A stretch of DNA of 64,000 bases from Octopus vulgaris (lineage: Eukaryota): positions 75,454,001 to 75,518,000 of the forward strand of contig OX597818.1 in NCBI GenBank assembly GCA_951406725.2, read 5' to 3'. Shown in pieces: positions 853 through 46,039 of the stretch; the first letter of the stretch is position 1; each line of letters begins with the position of its first letter. The position numbers and the translations under genes were made by a program. The notes under the pieces were generated by a model. It ran no database searches. It had not been told where the DNA came from and saw only the letters and a program-made list of their open reading frames with translations.

Positions 853-856
<4 letters not shown>

Positions 857-1048
857 AATGTGACCCTGTGTGTACTGTTGGCGATTTTTTTCCTCCGTCT
901 TCCCTTCTTTGGATCTTTCCTTTTCCTATGTTTCTGACGAAGAGCTCCGCTCGAAACGTTAAACTCTCCTTCTTTCCTTCTTTCCTAAGCATCCAATAAT
1001 ACTATACTTGTTCCACGTCCTCGCGTTGTTGTGTTTTCTTGTTTGGAT

Positions 1049-1052
<4 letters not shown>
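853..1052 (+). mobile_element. Short PLE pseudo-LTR / retrozyme-like element carrying a hammerhead motif, flanked on both sides by (TA)n
   Basis: ~200-bp unique module between TA tracts. A second copy at ~37530-37666 shares the sequence from ATGTTTCTGACGAAGAGC to TTTGGATTAAC(TA)n. Confidence 0.7.
930..964 (+). ncRNA. Minimal type I hammerhead ribozyme motif
   Basis: GUUU-CUGACGA-a-GAGC(ucc)GCUC-GAA-ACGU-U^-AAAC. Conserved CUGANGA and GAAA boxes, 4-bp stem II, loopless palindromic stem III (ACGU), stem I GUUU/AAAC. Confidence 0.75.
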
Positions 1053-15533: not shown

Positions 15534-16813
15534 CGAGGGATGTTCAATAAGTAATGCCTCTGACCCACTTGCAGTTATTTGATCTAGCTGAAATTTTGCA
15601 TGTGCAATTATTCATATCTCTATAGATTAAGTGGCAAATCACAGCTCTGAACTAATTGTAGTTTCTGATTTACAGGTTTTTGAACTGAGTCAAGTGTGAA
15701 ATAGAGCCTGTTGAGTGTCGAGCAGTGATCCGGTTTTTGTATTTGAAAGGACGCACACCACGGGAGACTTTTGATGAAATGAAAGTAACTTATGGTGATG
15801 ATGCCCCATCATATGACCTTGTAAAACGCTGGCATCGTGAATTCAAACATGGTCGGAACTCTGTGGAAACAACTCCCAGATCTGGTCGCCCCCTTCTGCT
15901 ATTGATGAGGCATCTGTCCGTCAAGTTGAGGCTGCCATTTTGGAAGATCGACGCATAACTATTCGCCAAATAGTCCATGAGATCAAGATTAGTACCGGGT
16001 CTGTGGAAACTATCATTCATGACCATTTGCATATGCAAAAGGTGTCTGCTAGATGGATTCCCAGGTTGCTCACACCTTTCCAGAAGCAAGAACGCGTCGA
16101 GTGCTCGAGGATGAATTTGGAGATGTGCCAAGTAGATGAGTCAAAATTTTTCAAAAGACTGATTACACAGGATGAAACCTGGGTCCATCCCTATGATCCA
16201 GAGACCAAAGCCCAGTCAATGCAGTGGAAGCACCATGACTCACCTCCTCTAAAGAAGGCAAAGGTGCAGCTCTCCGCTGGCAAGGTCATGCTCACAGTCT
16301 TCTGGGACCAGGACGGAGTAGTGATGACAGATTTCCTGGAAAAGGGTACCACAATTACAGGAGCCTATTATGCTTCACTTTTGCAGAAATTAAGAGAAGC
16401 TATCAAAATCAAGAGGCGGGGCAAGATCAGCAAAGGCATCGACAACGCTCCGGTCCACAACTCGCGTGTCGCCAGATCAGAAGCACAGGCGTGCGGCTAT
16501 GAACCCCTCTCCCATCCCCCCTACTCTCCTGACCTTGCACCCTCTGATTTTCTCCTCTTTCTAGCCATGAAGTTGTTTTTGAAAGGAAAGCATTTCCCAG
16601 ATGATGCAGCCTTGATTTCTGAAGTCACGTCGTGGTTGGAGGACCAAGCTGGGGTCTTCTACAAAAACGGTCTCCAGAGCTGCATCAAATGATGGGAGAA
16701 ATGCGTACCTCTTGGTGGTTCCTATGTAGAAAAAGACTAATAACTGTGCCAAGTTTCGTTGCTCTACTGCTATGGGAAGTAGGTCAGGGGCATTACTTAT
16801 TGAACGCCCCTCG
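15534..16813 (+). mobile_element. Full-length mariner transposon (1280 bp), irritans-like
   Basis: TA target-site duplications. 32-bp TIRs CGAGGGATGTTCAATAAGTAATGCCTCTGACC versus reverse-complemented CGAGGGGCGTTCAATAAGTAATGCCCCTGACC (3 mismatches). Confidence 0.97.
15701..16740 (+). pseudogene. Mariner D,D34D transposase, inactivated
   Basis: Motifs WIPRLL, ITQDETWV, DNAPVH...YSPDLAPSD (34-residue spacing). Start ATG appears as ATA, frameshift near 15893, short in-frame deletion before DNA, premature TGA at 16690 before WEKCV..GSYVEKD*. Confidence 0.95.
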
Positions 16814-27099: not shown

Positions 27100-28185
27100 T
27101 TTATTATTCAGTAGTCTTATTTTTATAACGTGCTTTCACTGCACTACCGAGCGCAGCTCTGTGTGCCTTGGGTATGTGCTGTGGTTTGCTGTGATGCTCT
27201 TATACTTACTGTTTTGAAAGTGTTTTACGTAGGATGTGTGCAGTGCCTAGTAGTGCTATTTTCTGTGTGTTATTATATTTGTTAGTCCTGGTGTTTTTGT
27301 TATGTATTTGTCTGAATATTTTTATCAGACCTAATGCACCCACTATGATAGGAGTTGTTTCTGTTTTTAGACTCTACATTCGAGTCACCTCTATTTCCAT
27401 GTCTTTGTATTTGGATGGCTAGAATGCTGATACCTATTATCTTGTTTTTCACATTGAGCTCTGTTTTCAGTATTAATCTAACTCGTCTATAGTATTCTTT
27501 TTTTATTTTCTCTTTCATTTGTGTGTGTTGTATCATATCTAGTTCACTGATTCCTAAATATTTATTTGTCTGGCTTTGGTCTAATTCTCTTATTCCATTT
27601 GCTTTATCTAGTGTGATGTTACTACTCTTAACTAGTTTTCCTCTTTTCAAGGTTGCTTTGGCACATTTTTCTAAGCTAAATTTCATATTTATTTCTTTGG
27701 TAAATCTATGTACTGTCTGCAGTAATGTTTCCAGCTGTTTATCATTTGTAGCGTACAGTTTTAAGTCATCCATATATAAGAGGTGGTTGATTGTTTTGCC
27801 TTAACATTTGTATCCGCATCCAGTTCTGTTTAGCATGTCAGATAAAGGTGTCAGTGACAAGCAGAAAAGGAGTGGAGAGAGCATGTTTCCCTGGAATATT
27901 CCTCTTCTAATGGGGATGGTTTTGGTTTTTATGAGTTCCTCTTTCGTTTGGAGCTGTAGCACTGTCTGCCATTTATTCACAGGGTGTCTGTTGATGGCTA
28001 GTGTTTCTAGGATCCATGTGTGTGGAATGATATCAAAAGCCTTTCGGTAGTCGATCCAGGCCATACTTAGGCCTTTCTTCTTTCTGCAGTTGTCTTCAGT
28101 TATGGCTTTATTGATCATTAGTTGTTCTTTACAGCTGTCTGAGCCCTTACAGCATCCCTTTTGCTCTTCTGGAAACATGTTGTTT
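27100..28185 (-). mobile_element. R4/Dong-like LINE: reverse transcriptase plus endonuclease 3' end, internally deleted pseudogene
   Basis: PEEQKGC..CKEQLMI..AWIDYRKAFD, RGIFQG..LSPLLFC, HLLYMDDLKLYA, then a jump to PIIVGALG and KIALLGTAHILRK. The 5' end abuts (TAA)/(TGA)n. Confidence 0.9.
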
Positions 28186-37529: not shown

Positions 37530-37662
37530 CGATGTTTCTGACGAAGAGCTCCGCTCGAAACGTTAAATCCTCCTTCTTTCTTTCCTTTCCTGAGCATCCA
37601 GTAACACTATACTTGTTACACGTCCTCGCGTTGTTGTGTTTTCTCTTTGTTCATGTTTGGAT

Positions 37663-37666
<4 letters not shown>
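37530..37666 (+). mobile_element. Second, 5'-truncated copy of the hammerhead-bearing element (motif at 37534-37568)
   Basis: GTTTCTGACGAAGAGCTCCGCTCGAAACGTTAAA is identical to 930-963. Same 3' end followed by (TA)n. Confidence 0.75.
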
Positions 37667-37699
<33 letters not shown>

Positions 37700-45786: not shown

Positions 45787-45850
<64 letters not shown>

Positions 45851-46039
45851 AATTTGAGAAGAGAAGAGTGGTTGTTTTACGTTTCAAACATAGCTCTTCT
45901 TCGGAAACAGCTGACATAGGAAAGTCCAAGAGGAAAGGAAGAAGGAAGAAAAAATCGCCAACAATGCACGTGTAGGTACATTTTGGAAAAATATATATAT
46001 AATAATGGCTAAAGATTTTACCCGAGTCATATAGACTGA

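Follow-up and report, generated by a model that had tools for sequence, protein, structure and literature searches.

We found that an abundant element of about 200 nt in the genome of Octopus vulgaris, which carries a minimal type I hammerhead ribozyme, is, as judged from sequence comparison, a non-coding solo pLTR, the end repeat of a Penelope-like element (PLE) of Neptune type whose insertion target is (TA)n. The copy in focus represents the 3'-terminal ~200 nt of a family-A pLTR and occupies positions 852-1052, on the plus strand, of the window, i.e. the whole 64,000-nt stretch of contig OX597818.1 that was analysed. Our overall model, in which solo Neptune pLTRs arise through a nick in (TA)n, internal priming and copying of the uncut RNA up to its 5' end near 851, is one to which we assign a probability of roughly 0.8.

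The initial annotation had reported the motif GTTT-CTGACGA-A-GAGC-TCC-GCTC-GAAA-CGTT-AAA at two sites, and we found it at both (930-963 and 37534-37567), the copies being without any difference over 36 nt (928-963 and 37532-37567). In copy 1 it forms a minimal type I hammerhead at 930-964 (plus strand), recognized from its sequence and from the consensus of Fig. S3 in the supplement of PMC4209133. Helix I is short (GUUU/AAAC, 930-933/961-964) and helix III, as had been proposed, is a loopless palindrome (ACGU, 956-959); between them lie the core CUGACGA (934-940), an extra A (941), helix II (GAGC/GCUC, 942-945/949-952) with its UCC loop, and GAAA (953-956). H17 is U960, so that the predicted cut after GUU, at 960/961, had been placed correctly. 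In standard numbering, C3-A9 correspond to 934-940, G12-A15.1 to 953-956, C15.2-G16.2-U16.1 to 957-959 and H17 to U960. The description of the hammerhead as intact holds for both window copies but not for the majority of the family, which carries U4C.

Copy 2 (37532-37666, plus strand) is a second solo pLTR of ~135 nt, with a hammerhead at 37534-37568 whose helix I is closed by a G-U pair. Since it is 5'-truncated at ~37532, only copy 1 has the reported size of ~200 nt and the 5' flanks of the two copies are not homologous; the drift described for the flanks is real on the 3' side, with several substitutions and two indels. Both copies share the expected 3' terminus (TTTGGATTAAC; GGATTAAC), followed by (TA)n at 1053-1130 and 37667-37698, respectively. 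A further (TA)n tract (822-851) borders copy 1 on its 5' side, as part of the target microsatellite, and the start of copy 1 at 852 is the commonest 5' boundary of family A in the boundary counts. A loose hammerhead pattern gave 9 matches in the window against 2.2 expected. Rfam returned no match within 860-1050 at E<=10 and no hammerhead among the 150 matches listed for the whole window; the miRNA matches of that scan were microsatellites and were set aside, and the whole-window repeat search was likewise dominated by microsatellites.

No PLE ORF was found in the 64-kb window by tblastn. Pieces of PLE-type frames lie directly upstream of some genomic copies of the unit (L019, L034, L040, L043, L059), and a search with one such piece gave 1,923 candidates, of which 150 were scored, many lying in open frames of 800-1,060 codons. 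Most of the 20 stretches examined showed the order pLTR-ORF-CA-rich UTR-pLTR, and full-length relatives consist of a pLTR, a ~950-aa ORF with RT, zinc linker and GIY-YIG, the CA-rich UTR and a second pLTR. At L081, a 948-aa RT/CxxxxCxxC/GIY-YIG frame lies between two pLTR ends that are identical to each other and separated by 5,898 nt. The hammerhead is found in both pLTRs of L081, L086, L088-L092, L096, L097 and L100, and three-unit tandems with a unit of ~6.2 kb are present at two loci (L082+L083 and L084+L085). This bears out one of the two alternatives of the initial annotation, that of a PLE pLTR, the unit being the terminal repeat of an autonomous, ORF-bearing element. Inverted copies also occur (L025, L226, L230, L239). 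A check for a 30-40-bp 'tail' found an extension of ~26 nt in 1/30 and ~105-130 nt before the TA-rich flank in 5/30.

In Pfam, the frame P0003 matched RVT_1 (E 0.0018) and GIY-YIG (E 0.013), both below the Pfam cut-offs, and the motifs were also read directly; its homologues, which bear no clade names, numbered 1,035 at E<=1e-30, with PF00078 in many and PF01541 also in some. A linker of this kind marks Neptune or Nematis (PMC8557442). The C-x4-CxxC lies ~30 aa ahead of the start of GIY-YIG, a spacing that agrees with the Neptune rows, that of Nematis being short; a CCHH motif is present, and the RT motifs are, by eye, closest to the Neptune1_Ap row of the alignment printed in the supplement of that paper. 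The parent would therefore be of Neptune type, as indicated by linker spacing and RT motifs compared by eye with printed rows. An RT frame beside L005 (P0002) was tried as the parent and rejected, being 31% identical to P0003 and of another family; it belongs to a distant second PLE family (L005:2115-3026, RVT_1 E 2.5e-8).

The L081 type, which we call branch B, is apparently young and its element apparently intact: the ORFs are open and 99.4-99.7% identical, and, of 9 elements compared over 265 nt, 6 have pLTR ends that do not differ at all, a seventh has a single mismatch, and the remaining two gave large mismatch counts without gaps, probably owing to indels. Four branch-B pLTRs spaced ~3 kb apart (G000:C1:119858849-119867914) may be tandem units of an element with an internal deletion. 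Family-A pLTRs flank the same kind of ORF at L097, where it is frameshifted and 86% identical to B in DNA. Copy 1 is 87-88% identical to these pLTRs, and by such comparisons the window copies are members of the older family A.

The genome-wide count upheld the expectation of a very abundant mobile family, with well over 10^4 copies. An exact search for the 26-nt core gave 3,033 matches in the genome (G000) and none for the reversed control, so the core is not a product of chance, and its U4C version gave 7,954. A 24-nt anchor outside the hammerhead matched 7,709 times, and 42 of 90 sampled anchor copies also contained the exact core. The union of core and anchor gives ~15,000 distinct copies, and an estimate of ~20,000 is reached if both marks are independent. 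U4C (CCGACGA) is carried by 58 of the 79 family-A copies spanning position 935, by 16 of 17 branch-B loci (L081 being the sole U4 locus) and by all 24 spanning B copies in the sample. C4 copies are on average younger than U4 copies (divergence 2.2% vs 3.9%), and C4 recurs with otherwise complete cores in other families with other loop-II sequences (923 matches, control 5). A rough pLTR tree (62 rows, 188 columns, copy 1 not among the rows) joined A-U4, A-C4, intermediates and B in one lineage, with the bootstrap not settled, and required 8 changes between U4 and C4, 3 of them forced by well-supported branches.

Core conservation was assessed in 90 copies, the first in a list of 100 anchor matches from contig C1, which had been chosen without the core and in which one near-duplicate pair was kept. 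At non-CpG positions, differences amounted to 1.4% in the core (18 of 1,286 letters) vs 4.9% and 5.1% in the flanks, position 935 (U4), the largest single variant, being left out as a CpG column; over all columns, 935 included, the values were 3.4% vs 4.8% and 5.1%. Rare variants alone gave 1.4% for the core vs 2.8% (Fisher p = 0.003, the sites not being independent), and CpG columns decayed alike (4.3% vs 4.2%). The comparison of core and flanks that had been put forward in the initial annotation thus favoured the core overall, but not position 4. Copy 1 and L081 are identical at 33/33 positions over 927-959 and match at 52/74 and 66/93 (~70%) on the two sides; since L081 is the lone U4 locus in B, the figure for copy 1 against a typical B copy is 32/33. 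H17 was U in 70, A in 8 and gapped in 1 of the 79 spanning family-A copies, never G, and is C in branch B. The extra A941 was kept in 80/80 copies, the G10.1-C11.1 pair corresponds to G942-C952, and other families of the genome show covariation in helices I and II. Core conservation, the absence of G at H17 and helix covariation together indicate that the fold and the core are kept, with position 4 kept as a pyrimidine, and the pattern of substitutions suggests that the hammerhead is likely maintained by selection except at this position.

Further minimal-hammerhead families (GGAC/GUCC, GGCUG/CAGCC, GGAU/AUCC) were found genome-wide (853 matches, control 14). The window also contains, at ~45848-45960 (minus strand), an older relative from the pLTR lineage of the two copies, in which the core reads CCGAAGA and helix II is broken. 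Downstream of the hammerhead, CCTGAGCG follows a pyrimidine tract (985-991, homologous sites) and is kept in families A and B and in older relatives but lost from copy 1; where present, it has the potential to base-pair with the 3' strand of helix II.

Both solo copies in the window are most likely inert, their hammerhead being predicted to be folded shut. In the predicted fold of the monomer, the core strand is paired with the cleavage strand (-7.7 kcal/mol, vs -3.8 for the open form), and a lone copy is unable to close helix III. The ACGU duplex alone contributes -1.7 kcal/mol (ViennaRNA), the dimer would be pseudoknotted, and within the window the closest partner found on the same strand lies at a distance of 36.6 kb. 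A role of U4C in rescuing the RNA from the blocking hairpin was borne out only weakly, the hairpin going from -7.7 to -6.5 in A and from -9.7 to -8.8 in B. A long-range helix (868-881/993-1006) seen in the fold of copy 1 was absent from those of L233 and L088 and was dropped. Published minimal hammerheads showed no cleavage as monomers and weak cleavage as dimers (PMC4209133). In the Poseidon element PAc, RT initiation is internal, and the hammerhead is assisted by protein but not needed for insertion in vitro (PMC11167929).

The copy ends point to how the solos may be made. In the sample, 75/90 copies continue into a TA-type tract. The 3' end is fixed at the TTTATATA motif, and pLTR-TTTATATA-5' UTR junctions were seen in 53 copies; in full-length elements, including those of branch B, the sequence carries on at this point as TTTATATACCGC into the 5' UTR. 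At the other side, the starts of 62/90 copies fall between -95 and -60 from C3, a span of 36 nt around 851 whose edge at ~849-851 is sharp, and 3/90 family-A copies are clearly longer, 7 of 10 apparent long starts being false microsatellite matches that were not counted. Genome-wide, 696 (TA)n junctions were counted at 851, compared with 47 at 927 and 23 at 960/961 (the cut site), rough counts because the three patterns differ in decay rate. These counts show no pile-up of ends at the cut site, which indicates that the templates were copied across an uncut hammerhead. Older related families begin, by eye, at the homologous site, and chimeras with ORF pieces (L019, L034, L040, L043, L045, L059), a sample selected for that pLTR start, share it while their join points differ. 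The TCATTC at the 5' edge resembles an initiator.

We propose that the GIY-YIG/RT protein would nick the (TA)n run. The fixed 3' end at TTTATATA suggests that the nicked (TA)n then serves as an internal primer on the RNA, annealing where the TA-like motif closes the pLTR. The RT would copy the still-uncut hammerhead region and run off at the likely RNA 5' end near 851, which we infer to be the transcription start; the promoter of Drosophila Penelope is located within the pLTR (PMC2377424). If 851 is the transcription start, the solos would be 'strong-stop' products from which occasional jumps take place. Such jumps from run-off cDNA would give rise to mini-tandems, ORF chimeras and full-length copies, and the chimeras above, together with a second pLTR within 600 nt in 16/30 pLTR+UTR copies, are their expected outcome. 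These mini-tandems have the order pLTR-5' UTR piece-pLTR (L223, L224, L237, L245 and 12 more of L221-L250), and their left breakpoints cluster at ~+210-260 in an AC-rich stretch, three of them at the same base. The hammerhead itself would likely act as a weak signal for processing of the full-length RNA, dependent on dimer formation or on protein.

The 5' peak might instead reflect truncation focused by microhomology, an RT pause or short non-autonomous master copies, the solo units still being Neptune pLTRs but 851 not being an RNA end; we regard this as possible, though clearly short of even odds. Because of the TA/TG-like words at the 5' boundary, part of the peak could be due to microhomology with the target. 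The peak is spread across 849-872 with sub-peaks at ATT, ATGTG and GTGTGTA words, and many copies have an inverted GGTCA/TGACC pair across the boundary. Moreover, branch B has no such peak, 21/30 of its copies reaching at least 200 nt upstream and 3/30 stopping at the homologous site. On the other hand, the UTR upstream is rich in CA/TA-like words, yet it is reached by only 3/90 copies, and the better microhomology at 927 (TATG) has far fewer junctions than 851. The boundary also recurs across several subfamilies and older families, and the L233 folds show no strong hairpin at this place (-8.8 kcal/mol over 90 nt).

Weak or relaxed catalysis is a possibility raised by U4C and by the U-U mismatch that branch B has in helix I, and one could go further and see in the hammerhead a vestige, inactivated by U4C in the successful lineage and now kept only as a protein-binding or structural element. 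The excess of exact C4 cores (7,954 vs 3,033), the near-fixation of C4 in B, the mismatch and a blocked fold of B that is ~8 kcal/mol better than the open one all fit this reading, and U4C 'considerably decreases activity in vitro' (PMC3088659). It is nevertheless rather doubtful, since the other core positions, G10.1-C11.1, the palindrome and H17 are kept across ~30% flank divergence and the C4 change is also met in further families whose cores are complete in all other respects. Furthermore, the U4C activity suffices in vivo for viroid infectivity, as reported in the same source. A bolder extension of our own model, in which the ~20,000 solos are fossils of strong-stop cDNA that ran off a capped 5' end, this cDNA either integrates or makes LTR-like jumps, and U4C is kept against CpG reversion, up to the youngest intact branch, as a selected slow ribozyme, is speculative and, in our view, unlikely to hold in full.

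The other alternative of the initial annotation, a self-standing non-autonomous retrozyme family that spreads via small circular RNAs from hammerhead cleavage, fits a non-coding unit of ~200 nt with a type I hammerhead and >10^4 copies, but is very improbable, because the hammerhead is minimal rather than canonical, the unit is the end of an ORF-bearing, autonomous Neptune-type element, copies are not permuted about the cut site and do not end there, and self-pairing of the 200-nt RNA is unremarkable (z = +0.43). The search for tandem copies found a head-to-tail array of the unit at 0/30 loci, with a second piece 700-1,150 nt away at 4/30. Mini-tandems with hammerheads 445-687 nt apart do occur (4/30, both cores matching a loose pattern), but the junctions vary from copy to copy, so none has been amplified as a family. 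With its non-canonical hammerhead, the lack of unit tandems at these loci and a coding parent of its own, the element is not a retrozyme of the type described by Cervera and de la Pena (2020, PMC7229834). Small size, lack of coding capacity, high copy number and a type I hammerhead are shared with those metazoan non-LTR retrozymes; these have canonical hammerheads in tandem repeats of 170-400 nt that are expressed as circles, whereas the octopus unit has a minimal hammerhead, is singly dispersed and is part of an autonomous element.

The closest likeness is to the minimal hammerheads in the pLTRs of metazoan PLEs (Cervera and de la Pena 2014, PMC4209133), which are also of type I, with CUGANGA plus an extra base, G10.1-C11.1, GAAAC-GU-H with a loopless palindrome, a short helix I and a U-rich flank, and occur as thousands of solo copies with few full elements. 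The octopus version differs in having a helix II of just 4 bp with a 3-nt loop, and in that its dominant and youngest lineages are U4C while all 44 of the 44 Fig. S3 motifs examined are U4; U4 was, however, a requirement of the motif search in that paper. Its supplement file 2 holds no octopus entry. Compared with EN+ Neptune PLEs (Neptune1_Ap, Neptune1_Nv; PMC8557442), the octopus element shares the RT with C-terminal GIY-YIG, the CX2-5CxxC linker, the CCHH motif, pLTRs, full tandems, inverted truncated copies and microsatellite targeting, and differs from what is given there in its ~2.6-kb CA-rich 3' UTR (unit ~6.2 kb) and proline-rich N-terminus.

With PAc from Anolis (Frangieh et al. 2024, PMC11167929), our model has in common an internal RT start near the junction of pLTR and downstream sequence, AT-rich targets, an uncut RNA template and the lack of ends at the cut site. 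The ORF of PAc, however, starts within the hammerhead, RT starts 111-118 nt into the ORF and the RT start site is not homologous to the target, whereas the fixed end in octopus is a TA-like motif ~330 nt ahead of the likely start codon. Our literature search returned no report of this hammerhead in a cephalopod, nor of strong-stop copies of PLEs. Thirty recently active Penelope families have been described in an octopus, in a repeat library that may include this one (PMC13282606), and neither 'hammerhead' nor 'ribozyme' occurs in the main text of that paper.

Several other features were noted in the window. Two TA-flanked fold-backs beside copy 1 (742-806 and 1130-1360; -30.7 and -89.8 kcal/mol) each contain CUGAYGA half-cores and are possibly pieces of another Penelope-like family; an 'HHR_half_core' is annotated for one Naiad in the supplement of PMC8557442. 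A mariner-like transposase frame (15841-16689, plus strand) and a non-LTR RT fragment (27303-27800, minus strand) were named by eye from their translations, and a 434-nt inverted pair (51052-51485/55140-55573) is 91% complementary and separated by 3.6 kb.

Taken for what it is, the octopus element is ordinary in kind, PLE pLTRs with minimal hammerheads and thousands of solos having been known since 2014 (PMC4209133). What it adds is a 5' boundary that is fixed and a switch to C4 in those lineages that are youngest and most prolific. For annotation, the element matters because the standard CUGANGA descriptor passes over most of its copies. The genome offers a Neptune-type element that is apparently young and intact, the ribozyme in both its natural U4 and its natural C4 form, and >10^4 insertion ends indicating that copying of the uncut template mostly stopped at one site, and thereby test material for two questions, the function of the PLE hammerhead and the regeneration of the pLTR. 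If the bolder extension of our model were true, the mini-tandems of ~450 nt with two hammerheads would be ready-made retrozyme precursors, and PLEs would have been selected for a deliberately slow ribozyme that spares the template before it is copied.
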